From a virus (Duplodnaviria > Heunggongvirae > Uroviricota > Caudoviricetes), in IMG/VR virus record IMGVR_UViG_3300002461_001191: a DNA stretch of 64,000 nucleotides; one strand, written 5' to 3'. The notes below the pieces were generated by a model that worked only from the letters and a program-made list of their open reading frames with translations, was not told the origin of the DNA and made no database searches. Both the position numbers and the translations under genes were made by a program. Below, piece after piece: positions 5,953 to 61,338 of this stretch. The stretch's first letter is position 1. Each line of letters begins with the position of its first letter.

Positions 5953-5982
5953 TTGACAACTCTACAATTGATATGCAATAAT
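5953..5982 (+). promoter_or_regulatory. candidate sigma70 promoter (TTGACA-N18-AATAAT) driving leader/tRNA array
   Basis: Consensus -35 TTGACA at 5953-5958; AT-rich -10 at 5977-5982. Confidence 0.4.
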
Positions 5983-6016
5983 ACAAGCATTGAGATTTAA
6001 TTTAAGGAATAATTCA

Positions 6017-6091
6017 ATGTCTTCACGTTCACAACAATTTGGTTTTTTTCAGTTTGGTCAGTTTGACCAAGCGGGGTGCCATTTTGTTTGA
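6017..6091 (+). CDS. leader peptide 1 (24 aa, MSSRSQQFGFFQFGQFDQAGCHFV), 6 Phe and 5 Gln codons
   Basis: AAGGA RBS 8 nt upstream; ORF ends 24 nt before terminator hairpin; leader 3' end (GGTGC, 6075-6079) is a copy of terminator 3' arm, so it can pair with the 5' arm as an antiterminator. Confidence 0.5.
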   Translation: MSSRSQQFGFFQFGQFDQAGCHFV

Positions 6092-6114
6092 TTAAGTAAG
6101 TATTTCAACAAAAA

Positions 6115-6141
6115 AGCACCTCTAAACAAGGTGCTTTTTTT
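6115..6141 (+). terminator. attenuator/intrinsic terminator copy 1 (AGCACC-tctaaacaa-GGTGCT + T7)
   Basis: 6-bp GC-rich stem, 9-nt loop, 7 T; same sequence at 6270-6297 and a variant at 14653-14679. Confidence 0.6.
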
Positions 6142-6172
6142 ATTGTTAGTTTTAATTTTATTAAGGATTTTT

Positions 6173-6247
6173 ATGATGTTAGTTTTGAATGTTTTTAGCC
6201 AGCAATTTTTTCAGTTCCAGTTTGGAGCTAGGTGTCCTATTGTGTAA
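6173..6247 (+). CDS. leader peptide 2 (24 aa, MMLVLNVFSQQFFQFQFGARCPIV), 6 Phe and 4 Gln codons
   Basis: AAGGA RBS 5 nt upstream; tandem duplicate of leader 1 module; AGGTG at 6230-6238 complementary to terminator 5' arm. Confidence 0.5.
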   Translation: MMLVLNVFSQQFFQFQFGARCPIV

Positions 6248-6269
6248 AAGTTTCGCAACATACTCAATA

Positions 6270-6297
6270 AGGCACCTCTAAACAAGGTGCTTTTTTT
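6270..6297 (+). terminator. attenuator/intrinsic terminator copy 2 (AGGCACC-tctaaacaa-GGTGCT + T7), 12 nt upstream of first tRNA
   Basis: Identical hairpin and loop to copy 1. Confidence 0.6.
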
Positions 6298-6309
6298 ATG
6301 GTTTTTTGC

Positions 6310-6382
6310 AGGGGATTAGTGTAATTGGTTAGCACATCGTCCTTTGAAGTCGAGAGTCTAGGTTCAAGTCCTGGGTCCCCCG
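6310..6382 (+). tRNA. tRNA-Gln(UUG), type a (no encoded CCA; A1.C72 and one U.U in anticodon stem)
   Basis: Acceptor AGGGGAT/GTCCCCC; U8A9; D-stem GTGT/GCAC; anticodon loop CTTTGAA; T-arm CTAGG-TTCAAGT-CCTGG. Confidence 0.55.
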
Positions 6383-6415
6383 CAAAAAATAATGAAAGGA
6401 AATTTAAAAGTTTAT

Positions 6416-6490
6416 TGGGGATAAATCGATTGGAGCAGATACTTGGCTTTGAACCAAGGTGAGTGGGTTCGATTCCCACATCCCCTGCCA
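6416..6490 (+). tRNA. tRNA-Gln(UUG), type b copy 1 (CCA encoded; U1.U72)
   Basis: Acceptor TGGGGAT/ATCCCCT; anticodon stem CTTGG/CCAAG; loop CTTTGAA; T-arm GTGGG-TTCGATT-CCCAC; 75 nt. Confidence 0.7.
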
Positions 6491-6496
6491 AAAAAT

Positions 6497-6572
6497 GGAC
6501 TTGTAGCTCAGTTGGTAGAGCAGCAGACTGAAAATCTGTGTGTCGGCAGTTCGATTCTGCCCAAGTCCACCA
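6497..6572 (+). tRNA. tRNA-Phe(GAA), type a (canonical, CCA encoded)
   Basis: GGACTTG-TA-GCTC-AGTTGGTA-GAGC; anticodon loop CTGAAAA; GGCAG-TTCGATT-CTGCC; CAAGTCC-A-CCA; close to E. coli tRNA-Phe. Confidence 0.9.
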
Positions 6573-6606
6573 GTTAGTTTTAGTTGTTTAATAGGATAGG
6601 TTTAAT

Positions 6607-6684
6607 GCCGCCTTGGTGTAAATTGGTAGAGCACAAAAGACTGAAAATCTTTGGGTCTCGGTTCGATTCCGAGGGGCGGCACCA
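6607..6684 (+). tRNA. tRNA-Phe(GAA), type b (divergent body, CCA encoded)
   Basis: Acceptor GCCGCCT/GGGCGGC; anticodon stem AAAGA/TCTTT; loop CTGAAAA; T-arm CTCGG-TTCGATT-CCGAG. Confidence 0.75.
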
Positions 6685-6718
6685 GGTTGTTTTGTTGAAA
6701 TTATATATGTGTTTTTAT

Positions 6719-6793
6719 TGGGGGTAAATCGATTGGAGCAGATACTTGGCTTTGAACCAAGGTGAGTGGGTTCGATTCCCACACCCCCTGCCA
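6719..6793 (+). tRNA. tRNA-Gln(UUG), type b copy 2 (CCA encoded; U1.U72)
   Basis: Near-identical to 6416-6490; acceptor pair 6:67 changed A-T to G-C on both strands (compensatory), which confirms the register. Confidence 0.7.
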
Positions 6794-6840
6794 ATCTTAA
6801 AATTAAGTATACAGGTAAGTATATTTAATTTTAAGATTAT
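6794..6840. repeat. 18-bp inverted repeat (ATCTTAAAATTAAGTATA / TATATTTAATTTTAAGAT) with 8-nt loop, filling the whole spacer between two tRNAs
   Basis: Reverse-complement arms with one G.U position; begins 1 nt after the CCA of the upstream tRNA and ends 1 nt before the next tRNA. Confidence 0.6.
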
Positions 6841-6916
6841 GCTGTTTTAGCTGATGTGGTCATAGCGCGTGGTTGAAGCCCATGAGAAGTTGGTTCGATT
6901 CCAACAGGCAGCACCA
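6841..6916 (+). tRNA. tRNA-Phe(GAA)-like, type c (G37, two G.U in acceptor stem; CCA encoded)
   Basis: Acceptor GCTGTTT/AGGCAGC; D-stem GCTG/TAGC; anticodon stem CGTGG/CCATG; loop TTGAAGC; T-arm GTTGG-TTCGATT-CCAAC; 76 nt. Confidence 0.5.
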
Positions 6917-6923
6917 GATTATT

Positions 6924-6978
6924 GGGTCGGTTTGTGGTAAACCTAGGAATGCGAGTTCGAGTCTCGTCCGATCCACCA
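6924..6978 (+). other. tRNA-like minihelix: acceptor stem + T-arm + CCA but only 20 nt where D and anticodon arms should be (truncated tRNA or remnant)
   Basis: GGGTCGG ... GCGAG-TTCGAGT-CTCGT-CCGATCC-A-CCA; 55 nt. Confidence 0.35.
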
Positions 6979-7000
6979 GTTGTTTTTTTAAGGGGTTAAT

Positions 7001-7168
7001 ATGAGCAAGCTAGAGAAAAAGAAAGAAAAATTAAAACAAAGAATTGCTGATCTTGAGTTTGAAATGAGGAATATACTTCAGAAGAAATCTCAAGGTGCAG
7101 CTATTAATATTCAAAACTATAACTCAAAGATTATGGATTTGAAAAAAGAGTTGAGTTCCATGAATTAA
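7001..7168 (+). CDS. small coiled-coil protein (55 aa) embedded in the tRNA array
   Basis: ATG 7001 preceded by AAGGGG; MSKLEKKKEKLKQRIADLEFEMRNILQKKSQGAAINIQNYNSKIMDLKKELSSMN; below the length cutoff of the ORF track. Confidence 0.3.
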   Translation: MSKLEKKKEKLKQRIADLEFEMRNILQKKSQGAAINIQNYNSKIMDLKKELSSMN

Positions 7169-7178
7169 TTTTTACAGT

Positions 7179-7253
7179 TGGCGCATAGTGTAATGGTCAG
7201 CACAATTGACTTTGAATCAGTTGGTTCCAGTTCGAATCTGGATGCTCCTGCCA
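7179..7253 (+). tRNA. tRNA-Gln(UUG), type a copy 2 (CCA encoded; U1.U72 and C4.U69 mismatches)
   Basis: TGGCGCA-TA-GTGT-AATGGTCA-GCAC; anticodon stem ATTGA/TCAGT; loop CTTTGAA; TCCAG-TTCGAAT-CTGGA; TGCTCCT-G-CCA. Confidence 0.55.
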
Positions 7254-9235: not shown

Positions 9236-9619
9236 TTAACGATTTGGTTTAGGTTTATCATCTTCATTGTTGATATTACTGCCTCTTCTGAGTCTATCAT
9301 TCATCTGTCCAATTGAAGCTGCTGTACTTTTAACCTTTTTGATGACATTGTTGTAGTCTTCATGGCTACCTATCCAAAACCATAGATATCCATGTTCACC
9401 TTCTGGTGTTGTTATTTTCTTCGCAAGTGCTCTATGTTTTCTACCTACTTGTGCACTGTATACCTCGTTATCTGCAATATTAAGAGGTTTAAACTCAACA
9501 GTATGCGGGTCTTTTTTCCATTTTTCAAAGCTATTTACTGCTGTATCTTGTATTTCTGGATTGAGTTTATGAAACAGTTTATCAAAGCTTTCAGTTTTTT
9601 TACTTATCGTCTTTTTCAT
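9236..9619 (-). CDS. RelE/ParE-superfamily type II toxin-like protein (with C-terminal extension)
   Basis: Family-typical layout: N-term helical region then beta core ...KPLNIADNEVYSAQVGRKHRALAKKI...YLWFWIGSHEDY. Confidence 0.45.
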   Translation of the reverse strand: MKKTISKKTESFDKLFHKLNPEIQDTAVNSFEKWKKDPHTVEFKPLNIADNEVYSAQVGRKHRALAKKITTPEGEHGYLWFWIGSHEDYNNVIKKVKSTAASIGQMNDRLRRGSNINNEDDKPKPNR

Positions 9620-9929: not shown

Positions 9930-10355
9930 ATGGTTAGAAATCAAGAATTTGATGTTGTTTATAAAAATTGGATTAAATGGAATATTATTATTCCTTTTGT
10001 ATCTGCCATATTATTAATTGTTGTAGCATTTATAAGTGTATTTGCTTTAATGGCGTCTCAAATTAACAACATAGATTTCTTTTTTTATGAACATCTTCAT
10101 TATGCAGTTCTTTTGATTGTTGTGATGTTCTTAATTTTCGTCGGATCATTGTTTTTGCTTTATAAATACTTTAGAACAACTTGGGTTTTATTGAAATATA
10201 TGGATGATTTAGGAATTAAACCAATATTTGGCAAGAGCTTAGGATTGGTGGGGAATTTCGTTCTTTATTGTATAACTTCATTGTTTTTATTCATTATTCA
10301 TATTATATATATAATTGCTATATTTTTATCAGTAAGAAAATTTAATAAATTTTAA
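9930..10355 (+). CDS. hypothetical membrane protein
   Basis: 141 aa, multiple hydrophobic helices. Confidence 0.4.
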   Translation: MVRNQEFDVVYKNWIKWNIIIPFVSAILLIVVAFISVFALMASQINNIDFFFYEHLHYAVLLIVVMFLIFVGSLFLLYKYFRTTWVLLKYMDDLGIKPIFGKSLGLVGNFVLYCITSLFLFIIHIIYIIAIFLSVRKFNKF

Positions 10356-12835: not shown

Positions 12836-13348
12836 TTAGCATTGAATGCAAATCAGGTTGTTGGTGTATCTGCAAATCGTGGCTGCAATTTTGTTGTTAT
12901 TGAGTATTTTTGTAATTGATTTAGCATAATCTATGGATACCTGTAGATTGCTTGATGATCTTTTATTGTCAAAACTCAACTCAATCATAGGTGCAAGGTT
13001 AACATCAAGACACAGCCTTTTTAGTTCATTTGCAACAAAGTCAGCTTTATCCTGAGTGTATTTATCTTTCCAGTTTTGTTTGTGGTTGGGCAGTTTAAAG
13101 TGTTTAATTCTATAGACAACATCGTTTTCCTGATCTGTCATCATAAGTGCACTGGGGTAGAGTTTTTTAAGTTCACACATGGCACTTTCGGTTTTATCAA
13201 AATCTCTTTTGAAAAATATATAGCCACCAGACTTTTGATATTGGTGTTGCTCTGCTGTTGTAATGAAAAATTGTTCAAAATTGATGGCAGATTGAGCAAC
13301 TGGTGAGAATAAGCATATGCAGGATAAAAAAAAGTTTTTTTTGAACAT
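12836..13348 (-). CDS. secreted hypothetical protein
   Basis: 170 aa; signal peptide [21 protein letters not shown]. Confidence 0.4.
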
Positions 13349-14550: not shown

Positions 14551-14628
14551 ATGTTTATTCAAATTTTCTTCAACGATAATAACAATAATGATGCTGCACA
14601 GAGTGCTGGCAGATTGTTGTTTGTCTAA
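14551..14628 (+). CDS. leader peptide (25 aa, MFIQIFFNDNNNNDAAQSAGRLLFV) with 5 Asn + 2 Asp codons in a row
   Basis: ORF ends 25 nt before terminator; its 3' part CAGAGTGCT (14599-14607) is an exact copy of the terminator 3' arm, so AGAGTGCT can pair with the 5' arm AGCACTCT as an antiterminator. Confidence 0.5.
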   Translation: MFIQIFFNDNNNNDAAQSAGRLLFV

Positions 14629-14652
14629 AAGAAAAGAATCAACAAACTCAAA

Positions 14653-14679
14653 AGCACTCTAAAACAGAGTGCTTTTTTT
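14653..14679 (+). terminator. attenuator/intrinsic terminator (AGCACTC-taaaaca-GAGTGCT + T7) 30 nt upstream of aspS start
   Basis: Same family as 6115-6141 and 6270-6297 (AAAAGCAC.CTAAA.CA..GTGCTTTTTTTAT). Confidence 0.6.
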
Positions 14680-14708: not shown

Positions 14709-15983
14709 ATGAGAACATTAGTCAAAGAGTTGAAAGAGAAAATTGGTCAAGAGGTTAAGTTGTATTTAACTTTAGATGTTATGCGTAACCAGAAACATTT
14801 GCAGTTCATTCTAGCTCATGACAAGTCTGGTGCCATTCAGTTGGTTCTCTCCAAATCAAAAGTTCAAAACAATGAGGAAGTTGGACAGTTATTGCAAGGT
14901 TCAACTTTAATTGCTATAGGGGAAGTTGTCTCTGCAACCCAAAGTAAAACATTTGGGTTGGAAATACAGGTCAGCAGTATTGAGATAATGTCAAAAGCTG
15001 AAGCTTTTCCCATTACAGAAGAATCAAGTATTGACTTGAGGTTTGACTACCGTGCTGTTGATTTGAAATTCCCCAAACAACAGTTAATGTTAAAGCTTCG
15101 TAGTGCATTTGAGCAAGGGTGTCGTGAATATCTTTTATCAAAAGAGTTTACAGAAATTCATACTGCTAAATTAATGTCTAGAGCCTCAGAGAGTGGTAGC
15201 CAGGTATTCAAAGTGGATTATTTTGATAAAAAAGCTTTTTTGAGTCAGAGTCCTCAGGAAGGAAAAGAATTACATGTATCTAGCGGATTAGAGGGTGTTT
15301 TTGAAGTTGGTAGTGTATTCAGAGCAGAAGAGTCAAGATCATCTCGCCACTTAACTGAATTTATCGGTATAGATGTGGAGTTTGCTTGGTGTTTTGAAGT
15401 AGAAGAAGTCATGAAGATAGAAGAAGAGATGTTGTGCTATGCTTTTGCAAAGTTAGAACCATTTAAAGAAGAAGTGAAATCACTTTACAATCTTGAGTTA
15501 ACTACGAAGCCTACTGTAAAATACATGACTTTAGAACAAGCCAAGGTTATATTAAAAGAAAAATCTGGTATGTCTTTAGGAAGAGATCAGGATTTGCCAG
15601 ATGAAGGTGAAAGAATGCTATATGAAATTTTAGGTTTTGATTTGATTTTTGTATCAAACTATCCGATTGCAAAAAGGCCATTCTACCATATGTGGGAAAA
15701 AGAAAAGGGAACTACAAAAAGTTTTGACTTGATTTTCAAAGGTATAGAAATCACAAGTGGTGCTATCAGAGAGCATAGGCATGATATTTTTGCACAACAA
15801 GTAGTTCAAAAGGGTGTAAGTCTTGATTCAGTAGATAACTATTTGAAGGTGTTCAAATACGGATGTCCTCCACATGGTGGATTTGGATTAGGTGTAGAAA
15901 GGGTCATTGCCAAACTACTTGGATTGAGCAGTGTCAAGGAAGCTTCTGCTATGCCAAGAGACCCTGATAGGTTAATGCCGTGA
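14709..15983 (+). CDS. aspS: aspartate--tRNA ligase, archaeal/eukaryal-type (short, no GAD insertion)
   Basis: Class IIb: N-terminal OB fold; QSPQ flipping-loop motif; motif 2 FRAEESRSSRHLTEF; motif 3 GGFGLGVERV; C-terminal PRDPDRLMP; 424 aa. Confidence 0.8.
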   Translation: MRTLVKELKEKIGQEVKLYLTLDVMRNQKHLQFILAHDKSGAIQLVLSKSKVQNNEEVGQLLQGSTLIAIGEVVSATQSKTFGLEIQVSSIEIMSKAEAFPITEESSIDLRFDYRAVDLKFPKQQLMLKLRSAFEQGCREYLLSKEFTEIHTAKLMSRASESGSQVFKVDYFDKKAFLSQSPQEGKELHVSSGLEGVFEVGSVFRAEESRSSRHLTEFIGIDVEFAWCFEVEEVMKIEEEMLCYAFAKLEPFKEEVKSLYNLELTTKPTVKYMTLEQAKVILKEKSGMSLGRDQDLPDEGERMLYEILGFDLIFVSNYPIAKRPFYHMWEKEKGTTKSFDLIFKGIEITSGAIREHRHDIFAQQVVQKGVSLDSVDNYLKVFKYGCPPHGGFGLGVERVIAKLLGLSSVKEASAMPRDPDRLMP

Positions 15984-39121: not shown

Positions 39122-39169
39122 ATGAAAAAATTATTCAATAAATCATTTCGACCTCTATTGCCATCTTAA
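39122..39169 (+). CDS. possible leader peptide (15 aa, MKKLFNKSFRPLLPS) upstream of proS
   Basis: Short ORF; its last codons lie in hairpin CCATC-ttaaaa-GGTGG, a near-copy of the downstream terminator hairpin; only 2 Pro codons and a poorly spaced RBS. Confidence 0.25.
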   Translation: MKKLFNKSFRPLLPS

Positions 39170-39211
39170 AAGGTGGTGAGTATTTTCTTTTTCTAAAAAT
39201 TATTAAGAAAA

Positions 39212-39240
39212 TTTAAGCCATCTTTCAAAGGTGGCTTTTT
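39212..39240 (+). terminator. intrinsic terminator/attenuator 44 nt upstream of proS (AGCCATC-tttcaaa-GGTGGCT + T6)
   Basis: Hairpin followed by TTTTTTATTTT. Confidence 0.5.
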
Positions 39241-39283
39241 TATTTTCGCTTCAATAATCAATTTTTAATTTAAAGGAAATATC

Positions 39284-40402
39284 ATGAAATGGTCTAATTT
39301 ATTTTTTTATAACAATCACTTCGAGAAAAACAATCAAACGTTTGATTTGGTTCAACTCATGGAAAAATCTTGTATGTTTTCTCAAGAGTCAGCAGGAATT
39401 TATTCATCTATGTCTTTAGGTGTTATTTTAGAGGAAAAACTTCAAAAAATCATTGACAAACATATGGGGAAAGCCGGATTTTCAAAAGTCAGGTTAAGTA
39501 TATTGCAAGATGGTGATCTTTGGGAGAAAACAGGTAGAATGGATTTGTATGGAGAAGAACTTTTTAAGGTTAGAAACAGAAAAAATAAGGTTTTTTGCTT
39601 AAGTGCAACTGCTGAAGAGTCTGTTACAAACTTATACATGAAGTTCTATCACAGACAAAAAGCAAATTGTAATATATATCAAATCAATACAAAGTTCAGA
39701 GATGAAATGAGAGCCAGAAGCGGTTTAATCAGAGCAAAAGAATTCATCATGAAAGACGCCTATTCTTTTGGTTCTGAAGAAAGTATTAATAATGTTTATC
39801 AACTCATGATGGACACATATAAGAATATTTTAGATGAGTTAGGTTTAATATATTATATAAAGCAAGCGGATACTGGAGAAATAGGTGGGTCAATCTCACA
39901 TGAATTTTGTGTCAGCAGTGACTTGTGTGAAAACAATGAGTTGGAAGTTGCACATATATTCAATTTAGGAACCAAGTACAGTGAAAAGTTTGGTCTGTTA
40001 GATGATTCTGGAAAAAATGTTCATATGGCTTGTTTCGGTATAGGTGTATCAAGATTACTGATGGCTCTTTTGTCAAGCAAGAGGGACAACTTAGGATTCT
40101 GGGGGGATAGTGTATTTAATACATTTGATTATGTAATAACTGCCGTTGATTATGAGAAAAACAATGAAGTAAAAACAAGATCAGATAACTTATACAATCA
40201 TTTATCCTCAAGAGGTTACAGTGTCTTATTGGATGATAGAAGTTGTAATGCTGGGAAAAAGCTTCATGACTCTGAGTTGATATGTATTCAAAATAGGATA
40301 GTTGTGAGCACAAGTGCACTAAAACAATCCAAATATGAATTGTTAAGAAGAAAGAGCATGGAGAAAGAGTTTTTAACATATGACAATCTTCTTGAGTTGT
40401 AA
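39284..40402 (+). CDS. proS: proline--tRNA ligase, minimal form (no editing insertion, 372 aa)
   Basis: Class IIa: motif 2 FRDEMRARSGLIRAKEFIMKDAYSF; motif 3 GCFGIGVSRLLMALL; C-terminal anticodon-binding domain. Confidence 0.6.
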   Translation: MKWSNLFFYNNHFEKNNQTFDLVQLMEKSCMFSQESAGIYSSMSLGVILEEKLQKIIDKHMGKAGFSKVRLSILQDGDLWEKTGRMDLYGEELFKVRNRKNKVFCLSATAEESVTNLYMKFYHRQKANCNIYQINTKFRDEMRARSGLIRAKEFIMKDAYSFGSEESINNVYQLMMDTYKNILDELGLIYYIKQADTGEIGGSISHEFCVSSDLCENNELEVAHIFNLGTKYSEKFGLLDDSGKNVHMACFGIGVSRLLMALLSSKRDNLGFWGDSVFNTFDYVITAVDYEKNNEVKTRSDNLYNHLSSRGYSVLLDDRSCNAGKKLHDSELICIQNRIVVSTSALKQSKYELLRRKSMEKEFLTYDNLLEL

Positions 40403-60585: not shown

Positions 60586-61338
60586 TTATTTTGCTATCTT
60601 TTTGTTTTGCTTTTCTCTGTCTTTTTCATAACTTTTTAGCCATATTTTTATTTGGTCGTAATCTTCACCAAACATTGGCTTACAATATTTGATGTGAAGT
60701 TTATCCCTTCCTATCCATTTTACCAAATATTCTTCCATTGTATTTGTTCTTGGATATGCAAAAAACTTAGGAAGCCAATCAGACCAGTCATCTTTTATAA
60801 GTTGTTTTTGTATTAAATCTCCAAGTCCACTCATAATGGATTGTTTCTTTAAAAACATCAATTGAAGTTTTGGTGTTCTCATTTGTGCCAAACATTCTAG
60901 GGCAAGTCTTGGTGATTTTCTAACAATATTTGACATTGTTTCGTGATACAACTCTACAAAACTATATATAAAATCATCCCTACTTTCTTTATCAGAATCC
61001 TTAAGTTCAATCATTTTTTCATTATAGTAAGAAAGTATTTCTTTTATAGCAACTTTTGAGAACGCATCTTCTCCATCTTTATATCTGTTGACTTCTTTCC
61101 TTACTGCATCATGGTATCTTTCCAATACATATGGTAGATAATGTTCAACTCTTTCAGATTTTTCTTCTTGAAGTCTTCTTGCAATTTCAGGAACAATAAA
61201 ATTAGTTAAAGGCTCAAGATAGTATGTGCACTCATGAGCAAAAACTGCACTTGGATCAGTTTTATAAGGAAAGTCTTTAAACTCTTCCTCGTAAGTAAAC
61301 ATTCTGTCTTGTAGTGATTTTATTATTCTTTTATCCAT
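60586..61338 (-). CDS. hypothetical protein
   Basis: 250 aa ORF. Confidence 0.4.
   Translation of the reverse strand: MDKRIIKSLQDRMFTYEEEFKDFPYKTDPSAVFAHECTYYLEPLTNFIVPEIARRLQEEKSERVEHYLPYVLERYHDAVRKEVNRYKDGEDAFSKVAIKEILSYYNEKMIELKDSDKESRDDFIYSFVELYHETMSNIVRKSPRLALECLAQMRTPKLQLMFLKKQSIMSGLGDLIQKQLIKDDWSDWLPKFFAYPRTNTMEEYLVKWIGRDKLHIKYCKPMFGEDYDQIKIWLKSYEKDREKQNKKIAK

Follow-up and report, generated by a model that had tools for sequence, protein, structure and literature searches.

Leader-peptide attenuation has been known for 50 years as a means of controlling amino-acid biosynthesis genes and a few synthetase genes, and the usual account of bacterial tRNA genes is that growth rate sets their transcription at the promoter. 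Here, we describe an array of seven tRNA genes, four for glutamine and three for phenylalanine, in IMG/VR record IMGVR_UViG_3300002461_001191, a 64,000-nucleotide stretch catalogued as viral DNA and called the window below. Two small open reading frames (ORFs) rich in glutamine and phenylalanine codons, each followed by an intrinsic terminator, precede the array. On the strength of the sequence and of folding models, we consider it probable that the seven tRNAs are functional, that they belong to one operon, and that transcription of this operon is gated by ribosome stalling at the cognate glutamine and phenylalanine codons.

The closest described counterparts of the upstream units are the gammaproteobacterial attenuators pheL-pheA (Rfam RF01859), pheM-pheST, and the trp, his, and thr leaders. 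Like the window units, these consist of a short ORF with a ribosome-binding site (RBS), a run of regulatory codons, and an intrinsic terminator. In leaders of the pheL-pheA and pheM-pheST type, again as predicted for the window, the position of the ribosome is read out by an exclusive antiterminator, the 5' arm of which lies at the 3' end of the ORF. The window units differ from pheL-pheA and pheM-pheST in what they appear to control, namely tRNAs rather than biosynthetic enzymes or a synthetase. In addition, a single peptide would sense two amino acids, matching the two downstream isotypes, and two such units stand in tandem. Thus, the window units are predicted to function like RF01859 but are not members of that family (27-30 versus 55 bits).

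The best-studied exception that we found to growth-rate control of bacterial tRNA genes uses a protein repressor. Specifically, the L-array (trn operon) of Anabaena sp. PCC 7120 is an inducible supernumerary tRNA operon (PMC8421152) under the repressor TrcR (PMC10272220). In the model proposed here, the window array resembles the L-array in being a silent set of tRNA genes that is switched on when translation is impaired, and in both cases a split between housekeeping and inducible tRNAs is suggested. The L-array, however, comprises 23-26 tRNAs of many isotypes, is controlled at its promoter by a protein, and answers general translational stress, whereas control of the window array would be cis-acting, RNA-based, and specific to the encoded isotypes. 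Neither of the Anabaena papers (PMC8421152, PMC10272220) mentions a leader peptide or attenuation.

Phage tRNA arrays provide a second comparison. The bodies of one tRNA-Gln type (type b) and one tRNA-Phe (Phe-3) of the window are common to viral contigs, down to the U1.U72 mismatch, A8, and G37. Unlike phage arrays, the window array is chromosomal by context, holds two isotypes only, has cognate attenuators in front, and includes tRNA-Gln bodies of an a type for which no viral match was found. Finally, the definition of a tRNA array unit calls for 20 or more tRNA genes and a density of two or more per kb (Tran et al. 2016, PMC4758250). Such units and the window array are alike in their high gene density (seven genes in ~0.95 kb in the window), in showing evidence of horizontal transfer, and in being linked to phages. 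With seven genes the window array reaches the density but not the number in that definition, and it differs further in its two isotypes and its attenuator control. A full-text literature search, in which coverage of subscription journals is thin, returned no report of attenuators in front of tRNA genes. Attenuation and inducible tRNA operons are known; leader-peptide control of tRNA genes seems new, and an earlier description may exist.

Two probable leader-peptide attenuators precede the array

An earlier note on this DNA, made from the sequence alone, had drawn attention to divergent tRNA-Gln and tRNA-Phe copies with unusual first acceptor pairs. It missed the two leader peptides and their terminators at 6017-6297, and these change what the array is (Table 1). 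Transcription would begin at a sigma-70-type promoter, the best promoter-like site between 5800 and 7400. The promoter is invariant in three of the loci that we retrieved from related bacteria and refer to by L numbers (L010, L011, and L012); a fourth, L146, has TTGACA and AATAAT without the TG before the -10 element.

Glutamine and phenylalanine together (Q+F) make up 9.3% of the residues of the window's long ORFs. Against this background, leader ORF 1 (Q+F = 11/24, P = 3.6e-6) ranks first and leader ORF 2 (9/24, P = 1.9e-4) ranks third among 636 small ATG ORFs in the window. The 24 codons of ORF 1 and its Q/F run are kept in L010, L012, and L146, where the changes are synonymous or conservative, and the core of ORF 2, SQQFFQFQFGARC, is invariant in four taxa. 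The region thus displays one hallmark of an attenuator, namely short ORFs with an RBS and a cluster of regulatory codons. One further Q/F-rich small ORF, at 61131, is a chance occurrence; it is antisense within a long ORF and lacks a terminator.

A second hallmark, a terminator in front of the genes together with a mutually exclusive antiterminator that depends on ribosome position, emerges from thermodynamic prediction. The 3' partner of antiterminator 1 (6105-6122) contains the 5' arm of terminator 1. With a ribosome modelled as stalled with its A site at codon 11, 13, or 16, antiterminator 1 is predicted to form at -13 to -17 kcal/mol; with the modelled ribosome at the stop codon, it is impossible. 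For antiterminator 2, placing the A site at codon 13 or 16 gives -15 to -17 kcal/mol. The two terminators share their GC-rich hairpin core. The distal antiterminator stem differs between the units on both strands (UUUUGUU/AACAAAA versus CUAUUG/CAAUAAG), and the one C.A mismatch of antiterminator 2 has become a U-A pair in L012 through a C-to-U change. In the full-length fold of leader 1, the Q/F run pairs with the antiterminator arm (z = -5.3). The first tRNA begins 13 nt after the U-run of terminator 2.

Ribosome-position folding was carried out on eight leader copies, two from each of four taxa. When the A site lies in the Q/F run (codons 11-16), the minimum-energy fold always contains the antiterminator holding the terminator 5' arm (-12 to -24 kcal/mol). 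When the ribosome is at the stop codon, the 5' arm of the antiterminator is covered, and the terminator alone forms (-11 to -16 kcal/mol). L146 was misaligned in a MAFFT alignment of the eight attenuator 3' halves, and the pairing evidence given here comes from per-sequence folding. In IMG/VR, no match to the QF-leader was found, and a free-loop terminator pattern returned at least 120 unrelated terminators and was uninformative.

The notion is that transcription from the promoter must pass two tandem attenuators before it reaches the first tRNA. The leader peptides are rich in glutamine (CAA/CAG) and phenylalanine (UUU/UUC) codons, the codons read by the downstream UUG and GAA anticodons. When charged tRNA-Gln and tRNA-Phe are plentiful, the ribosome would proceed to the stop codon and cover the 3' end of the ORF, the terminator would form, and transcription would stop. 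When either charged tRNA is scarce, a stall of the ribosome within the Q/F run would leave the end of the ORF free to pair with the terminator 5' arm, and transcription would read through into the array. If so, the operon would act as a codon-specific feedback loop that raises the supply of glutamine and phenylalanine tRNAs when decoding of their codons slows. We infer that the switch operates in vivo on a transcript spanning all seven genes, that the resulting tRNAs are aminoacylated, and that a physiological trigger sets it off.

Table 1. Features of the tRNA array and of the region in front of it (window positions)
Feature	Position	Strand	Description
Sigma-70-type promoter	5953-5982	+	TTGACA, 18-nt spacer, AATAAT, TG before -10; 11/12 positions
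Leader ORF 1	6017-6091	+	24 codons, MSSRSQQFGFFQFGQFDQAGCHFV, 5 Gln + 6 Phe; Shine-Dalgarno AAGGA at 6004-6008
Antiterminator 1 (predicted)	6073-6122	+	5' arm 6073-6091 (GGGGUGC..UUUUGUU, end of ORF 1) pairs with 6105-6122 (AACAAAA..GCACCU)
Intrinsic terminator 1	6110-6141	+	12-bp stem, 7-nt loop, U-run; -14.0 kcal/mol
Leader ORF 2	6173-6247	+	24 codons, MMLVLNVFSQQFFQFQFGARCPIV, 4 Gln + 5 Phe; Shine-Dalgarno AAGGA at 6163-6167
Antiterminator 2 (predicted)	6231-6276	+	GGUGUCCUAUUG (6231-6242, end of ORF 2) pairs with CAAUAAGGCACC (6265-6276, overlapping the terminator 5' arm)
Intrinsic terminator 2	6269-6297	+	28-nt hairpin core identical to that of terminator 1; U-run
tRNA-Gln(UUG), type a1	6310-6383	+	50.4 bits; A1.C72, U30.U40, G73
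tRNA-Gln(UUG), type b, copy 1	6416-6490	+	48.3 bits; U1.U72, A8, A10, encoded CCA; phage-type body
tRNA-Phe(GAA), Phe-1	6497-6572	+	73.2 bits; canonical-looking body
tRNA-Phe(GAA), Phe-2	6607-6684	+	57.3 bits; long D-loop
tRNA-Gln(UUG), type b, copy 2	6719-6793	+	48.0 bits; U1.U72; G6-C67 where copy 1 has A6-U67
tRNA-Phe(GAA), Phe-3	6841-6916	+	55.7 bits; G37; phage-type D-arm TAGCTGATGTGGTCATAGC
55-aa ORF	7001-7168	+	Lysine-rich, helical (MSKLEKKKEKLKQRIADLEFEM...), inside the operon; same position in every related array found
tRNA-Gln(UUG), type a2	7179-7253	+	56.8 bits; U1.U72, C4.U69, G73, encoded CCA

Leader codons match the isotypes downstream

What most strongly indicates that the leaders sense the tRNAs encoded downstream of them is that the match between leader codons and isotypes, which extends to the codon-anticodon level, recurs where the sequences are unrelated. 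Specifically, it is found in four further modules of unrelated sequence. In L154, a single 30-codon leader, MYTLMQQQFGFQQFGQFMTQADGAILVKKA (MYTLMQQQFGFQQFGQF...), and a terminator are followed by eight glutamine and phenylalanine tRNAs. L149 carries three modules within 6 kb. In the first, the leader MNSIVVMAQQFQQFQFNQFMVQ... (...AQQFQQFQFNQF...) precedes twelve tRNAs, only for glutamine and phenylalanine. In the second, the leader MFATQINKMDMDMRRDHHDDRRIS... (...MDMDMRRDHHDDRR...), which has ATG, GAT, CGC/CGT, and CAT codons, precedes tRNA-Asp(GUC), tRNA-Arg(ACG), and tRNA-Met. In the third, the leader MNKNFSHHMHMHHTK... (...HHMHMHH...) precedes five tRNA-His(GUG) genes and one tRNA-Met gene. 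The second and third modules together occupy 7884-9963 of L149, and a HisRS-like gene starts at 9963.

Each of these modules has its own promoter-like site, RBS, and terminator, the terminators differing in sequence. The 3' part of each leader ORF carries a copy of the core of the terminator 3' arm (CAGUGCC, UGCCUUUU, UGGUGGG, and AUGGUGCC), and ribosome-position folding of the L149 and L154 modules predicts the same two states as in the window. In total, the switch logic is predicted for six further units with different sequences.

Attenuator-like units also stand in front of synthetase genes in the window itself, and on sequence grounds the window genome uses the same device for these genes. 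A third unit contains a 25-codon ORF, MFIQIFFNDNNNNDAAQSAGRLLFV (14551-14628), with an asparagine/aspartate run (NDNNNND), a terminator at 14650-14679, and a predicted antiterminator of -19.7 kcal/mol. It precedes an ORF (14709-15983) that matches the non-discriminating aspartate--tRNA(Asn) ligase above the NCBIfam cut-off; thus, the amino acids that the leader would sense match the two tRNAs that the downstream ligase charges. A fourth unit (39122-39241) has a 15-codon ORF, MKKLFNKSFRPLLPS, with two proline codons near its end. Here, GCCAUCUU/AAGGUGG occurs twice, giving 1:2, 2:3, and 3:4 pairing options, and the terminator lies at 39215-39241. The unit precedes a short (372-aa) ProRS-like gene (ORF 39284-40402).

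The module in related bacteria

The same array was found in at least five related uncultured bacteria, probably Legionellales-like, with many compensatory changes in the tRNA stems. Three routes led to these loci. First, a 143-aa protein encoded beside the array has two homologues at 67% identity, and these identified L010/L011 and L012, which closely match the window, with near identity in the promoter, the two leaders, the two terminators, and tRNA a1. The segment from the promoter to a1 is 95.8% identical to L010, compared with 71% for the gene of the flanking protein, and the substitutions between the window and its relatives are concentrated in the antiterminator loop. Second, the degenerate leader pattern QQFFQFQFG, searched in metagenomes, recovered L146, a 1.27-kb contig of a more distant relative (77.7% identity) that holds the whole module, including the two leaders; its six tRNAs and small ORF are arranged as a1, b, Phe-3, Phe-1, b, small ORF, a2. 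Five other metagenome matches to the pattern are chance occurrences inside long coding regions without tRNAs.

Third, homologues of the 55-aa ORF of the array (61-80% identity) led to L149, L154-L157, L158, and L159. Across L146, L149, L154, L158, and L159, the identity of this small protein is 61-80%, and the motif LQKKSxGxAIN is invariant. It has no family or structural match besides generic coiled-coil ones. The idea that it is a detached PheS N-terminal coiled coil was dropped, given an hhalign probability of 0.2% with an E. coli PheS query.

Three of the loci obtained by the third route combine the array with a synthetase-like gene. Specifically, in L149 (5275-6378), L154 (5463-6566), and L159 (490-1593), the glutamine/phenylalanine array is followed by a gene for a 367-aa protein with a PheRS catalytic domain (tRNA-synt_2d) and an FDX-ACB domain. 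The best solved relatives of this protein are monomeric mitochondrial PheRS enzymes (E = 1.5e-19). The arrays of these three loci also hold AT-rich tRNA-Phe bodies absent from the window. No PheRS-like gene was found in the window, and L158, by our account its closest relative, is likewise without one. A 291-aa ORF that follows the window array and a 427-aa ORF that follows the PheRS gene in L149 were compared and are not homologous.

These neighborhoods bring up the possibility that the arrays are the sole housekeeping genes of the lineage for their isotypes, arranged in isotype-specific groups behind cognate attenuators such that supply tracks decoding demand; the unusual 1:72 pairs would then be those of the lineage's normal tRNA-Gln. 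In L149, the glutamine/phenylalanine, aspartate/arginine/methionine, and histidine/methionine arrays adjoin, and some are followed by the cognate synthetase (PheRS-like, HisRS-like). The device also precedes synthetase genes in the window, the promoter is near consensus, Phe-1 is fully canonical at 73 bits, and the small-ORF protein of L149 (P0007) occurs on a 1.33-Mb contig too, a weak hint at a small genome. Nonetheless, we judge this explanation rather unlikely. Close relatives differ in which tRNAs their arrays hold and in what order, and the anticodon loop of one L010 copy is disrupted, a turnover of the kind expected of accessory genes. Moreover, two terminators in series would be costly for abundant essential RNAs, and several of the bodies are common to phages.

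The degenerate L010 copy lies at 45-119 on the minus strand. It is a type-b tRNA-Gln with a disrupted anticodon arm (CTTGGCGATGTTCAAGG) that ARAGORN does not call, and it is a real decayed copy that documents turnover within arrays. The repeated type-b gene also affects assembly. In three short-read assemblies of the same organism (L002-L004), the contigs end at ~6451, inside the repeated type-b tRNA. Because assemblies break at this repeat, arrays of this kind can be expected to be often missing or split in metagenome-assembled genomes (MAGs).

The seven tRNA genes and their stems

The observation of glutamine and phenylalanine tRNA copies with odd 1:72 pairs was reproduced with ARAGORN, Rfam RF00005, Infernal alignments, and our own parsing. 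Over the full 64 kb, the ARAGORN calls number seven, four Gln(UUG) and three Phe(GAA), every one on the plus strand between 6310 and 7253; the window has no further tRNA genes for these amino acids. RF00005 matches all seven over model positions 1-71 at 48.0-73.2 bits, where the gathering cut-off is 29 bits.

The first acceptor pair is mismatched in all four tRNA-Gln genes, A.C in a1 and U.U in the remainder. The two b copies differ solely in the compensated 6:67 pair, and the further type-a mismatches that the earlier note listed are present, U30.U40 in a1 and C4.U69 in a2. Gene a1 ends in G73-C-A-A and encodes no CCA. All tRNA-Gln genes of the window have G73, G2-C71, and G3-C70, and all tRNA-Phe genes have A73 and an encoded CCA. 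The proposed division of the tRNA-Gln genes into two types holds for the b pair but not for type a, which comprises two bodies that are only 68% identical (a1 versus a2). The three tRNA-Phe genes are distinct bodies, as had been described, with mutual identities of 52-66%. By pairwise identity, the array thus consists of three glutamine and three phenylalanine bodies.

Comparison across taxa shows that the stems are maintained. A gap-free alignment of 11 type-b sequences (seven taken from viral contigs, with the window and L146 contributing two each) has changes on both sides in 10 of the 21 cloverleaf pairs, and 90% of its cells pair. Sliding the 3' partner by one column lowers pairing to 52-54%, and none of 500 shuffles reaches the observed covariation score. 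The 1:72 position is unpaired in all 11 sequences, and G2-C71 and G3-C70 are invariant. For type a1, four distinct orthologous sequences show six of 21 pairs changed on both sides, with U30.U40 in all. The a1 orthologues in L010, L012, L146, L154, and L156 keep U30.U40 and encode no CCA; their 1:72 pair is A-U in three lineages, and A.C occurs in the window genome and L012.

By inspection, Phe-1, Phe-3, and a2 show compensatory changes relative to L146 and L158. Orthologues of Phe-1 occur in L146, L158, L154, and L149 with compensatory acceptor-stem changes, the L146 orthologue of Phe-3 has two compensatory anticodon-stem changes, and a partial orthologue of Phe-2 lies at the end of contig L010. 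In a2 orthologues, 1:72 is U.U in L146 and C.U in L158, and 4:69 is G-C and A-U, respectively. As judged from these sequences, the 1:72 mismatch of a2 is conserved, and C4.U69 is private to the window genome.

Pseudogenization, one of the explanations put forward in the earlier note, finds no backing here, given that all seven scores exceed the cut-off and that orthologues keep their stems via compensatory changes. The two outcomes that the earlier note named as refuting its observation were looked for and did not occur: no copy falls below the covariance-model threshold, and no alternative folding register restores a normal 1:72 pair, the cloverleaf being fixed by covariation. None of the seven fits the description of a tRNA pseudogene, and the sole unconserved defect among them is C4.U69 in a2. 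A broader form of the idea holds that the locus is a decaying prophage or horizontally acquired tRNA remnant, in which the mismatches reflect decay, the upstream hairpins terminate an unrelated small transcript, and the leader ORFs are accidental. The phage-type bodies, the private C4.U69 mismatch, the degenerate b-like copy in L010, and a truncated tRNA-like piece at 6924-6978 fit such a history. However, beyond the scores of 48-73 bits and the compensatory changes across taxa, the 1:72 and 30:40 mismatches are themselves conserved, conservation of the leader region far exceeds that of the flanking genes, the leader-codon/isotype match recurs in four unrelated-sequence modules, and the neighbors are not phage genes but chromosomal ones. 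We therefore regard decay as very improbable.

Two side observations concern the spacers of the array. The 55-nt piece at 6924-6978 (plus strand) lies directly 3' of Phe-3, and L146 lacks it. Its acceptor stem of 7 bp includes G3.U70; A73, an encoded CCA, and a normal T-arm are present as well, with only 18 nt in place of the D and anticodon arms. The piece receives no ARAGORN or Rfam call and fits the description of a tRNA pseudogene, being what a deletion left behind or else an acceptor/T minihelix. G3.U70 with A73 is the AlaRS identity signature. In addition, the spacer between the second b copy and Phe-3 (6794-6838, plus strand) forms a perfect 19-bp AT-rich hairpin (-18.3 kcal/mol) with no U-run after it; this could be a processing site.

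A weak or open first pair as a trait of these glutamine tRNAs

We took a census of every tRNA in eight host-type and ten viral loci. Among the 26 host-array tRNA-Gln genes, 1:72 is U.U in nine, A.C in five, C.U in one, and A-U in 11; G-C, C-G, or U-A occurs in none. G2-C71 and G3-C70 are kept in nearly all of these genes (two a1 orthologues have G.U at 2:71), and N73 is G in 22 and A in four. The ten type-b viral contigs contain 11 tRNA-Gln genes, ten of type b and one with another body, and all 11 have U1.U72. The other isotypes in the census pair normally at 1:72, except for initiator-like tRNA-Met and one tRNA-Leu.

In E. coli, the identity set by which GlnRS recognizes tRNA-Gln comprises a weak U1-A72 pair, G73, G2-C71, G3-C70, G10, and the anticodon loop, and GlnRS opens U1-A72 in the complex. 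All four tRNA-Gln genes of the window share the weak or open first pair, G73, G2-C71, and G3-C70 with this set, and a1 and a2 also have G10. They depart from it in that the first pair is a true mismatch (U.U or A.C) rather than a weak U-A, that type b has A8 and A10, and that position 38 is A, not U, in all four (loop CUUUGAA). No glnS, gltX, or gatCAB gene was found within the window.

The earlier note had connected the weak pair to GlnRS. The anomaly is real, specific, and conserved (26 of 26 genes), and the connection to the enzyme is one that the sequences suggest. The conservation indicates that these tRNA-Gln families characteristically have a weak or open 1:72 pair, which is no product of decay. 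By analogy with the E. coli complex, this pair most probably serves recognition by GlnRS, which must open that pair.

Unusual acceptor ends also invite the idea that the array yields decoys, that is, tRNAs that soak up a tRNA-targeting enzyme or act as regulators with no part in decoding. The 1:72 mismatch, A8 and A10 in type b, and the absence of an encoded CCA in a1 could impair normal function, and in initiator tRNA a 1:72 mismatch weakens binding to EF-Tu. Yet an attenuator that senses stalls at cognate codons only makes sense if its products relieve the stall. The anticodon loops, T-loops, G18G19, and synthetase identity nucleotides are conserved, and relatives couple the array to a PheRS-like gene. 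Consequently, we consider the decoy explanation highly unlikely.

Phage-type and lineage-specific bodies

The earlier note had raised heterologous, phage-like acquisition of the tRNA copies. This proposal is supported for two of the six bodies, type b and Phe-3, but not for a1 and a2, for which IMG/VR pattern searches gave no viral match. Specifically, the type-b D-arm (A8-A9-A10, TAAATCGATTGGARCAGATAC) occurs in ten IMG/VR viral contigs, in each case at the same position within a tRNA-Gln(UUG) with U1.U72; the retrieved segments of these contigs carry 1 to 25 tRNA genes each. The Phe-3 D-arm, TAGCTGATGTGGTCATAGC, occurs in at least 120 IMG/VR viral contigs, and T4-like Enterobacter phages have a tRNA-Phe that matches Phe-3 at 83% identity. 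Among the cultured-phage records of GenBank, nothing matches type b. A BLAST search of the whole region against GenBank phages and PLSDB plasmids returned only generic tRNA-Phe and tRNA-Gln matches (72-82% identity) and no related locus. Because the type-b and Phe-3 bodies are shared with viral contigs and the a-type bodies have no viral match, the array reads as a mosaic of lineage-specific genes (Gln a1, Gln a2, Phe-1, and Phe-2) and phage-type genes (both Gln b copies and Phe-3).

This mixture suggests a more specific version of the attenuation model, in which ordinary tRNA-Gln and tRNA-Phe genes reside elsewhere in the genome and the operon is a heterologous, partly phage-derived emergency set. 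Such a reserve would be induced once the housekeeping species had run low, for instance through tRNA-cleaving toxins or defense nucleases, and its products would escape via their differing acceptor, D, and anticodon arms. Several lines of evidence are consistent with this idea. Two tight terminators in series suggest a low basal output; each anticodon is represented by several divergent bodies, which, the two b copies aside, are 52-68% identical; array content turns over between relatives; and type b and Phe-3 are members of phage tRNA families. Evasion of tRNA-targeting defenses by phage tRNAs has been documented (PMC10264068, PMC11555353), and Anabaena offers a known case of an inducible supernumerary tRNA operon (PMC8421152). 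Conversely, PADLOC and PHROGs searches of the neighboring genes identified no nuclease or toxin specific for tRNA-Gln or tRNA-Phe, the housekeeping copies are only supposed, and the side-by-side arrays of the relatives, for at least six amino acids, look like a general organization of tRNA genes rather than a targeted countermeasure. We hold the reserve to be a serious but tentative possibility.

Genomic context

The window carries mnmG, clpX, rseP, pncB, and synthetase genes, and by this gene content the context of the array is chromosomal. PADLOC and PHROGs searches of ten neighboring proteins gave no defense or phage signature beyond marginal matches. The pncB product is 53-60% identical to proteins of Legionellales and gammaproteobacterial MAGs among GTDB genomes, with 58-60% for Legionellales MAGs, and the sequence probably derives from an uncultured Legionellales-like gammaproteobacterium. 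The array is absent from all five GTDB pncB loci examined for synteny. Two ORFs on the minus strand lie 2-6 kb downstream of the array, a ParE-like toxin ORF (9236-9619; weak precomputed Pfam match) and an ORF with a marginal DUF4263/SduA match (12836-13348; E = 9e-4); no link between them and the tRNAs is established.

Weighing the proposed switch

Several points weigh against the proposed switch. The weak matches of Rfam Phe_leader (RF01859), although they span the full model length (6027-6143, 27.4 bits; 6172-6299, 30.1 bits), lie far below its gathering score of 55 and place the units outside the family. The minimum-energy fold of leader 2 as untranslated RNA already contains the antiterminator, such that unit 2 may, according to the models, be leaky or need translation to terminate. 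No terminator was found 3' of the last tRNA, and weak internal promoter-like sites exist within the array; that all seven genes are transcribed together is thus an assumption. The lineage was assigned from a single protein, the pncB product. Extra tRNA is useless if the amino acid itself is short, and the benefit of the switch depends on a trigger that lowers the tRNA. Finally, support comes only from thermodynamic prediction and from what can be read in the DNA, namely the genes with their structures and covariation, the promoter and ORFs, the terminators with their competing antiterminators, the conservation of these elements in relatives, and the match of leader codons to isotypes.

Implications

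If the proposed switch is true, decoding demand and tRNA supply would form a closed, isoacceptor-specific feedback loop, which would provide a simple answer to the long-standing question of how individual tRNA species are balanced. We speculate, as a possibility that we consider unlikely as a whole, that the modules are codon-gated, inducible rescue units of probably host-associated Legionellales-like bacteria. Such units would restore translation after isoacceptors are destroyed or sequestered by a tRNA-targeting toxin, a defense nuclease, or a host factor. Each would combine a leader in the codons of one or two amino acids with divergent tRNAs for exactly those codons, many of them of phage origin, and sometimes with a dedicated synthetase (the monomeric mitochondrial-type PheRS or the HisRS-like protein), and the diverse bodies and open 1:72 pairs would give escape.

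The switch would also offer a rationale for why phage-type tRNAs are kept in bacterial chromosomes. The locus brings to light a phage-associated family of tRNA-Gln in which the U1.U72 mismatch is conserved, a feature relevant to recognition by GlnRS, EF-Tu, and RNase P. Lastly, the order of a cognate leader, a terminator, and then a tRNA array constitutes a signature that can be searched for in other genomes.

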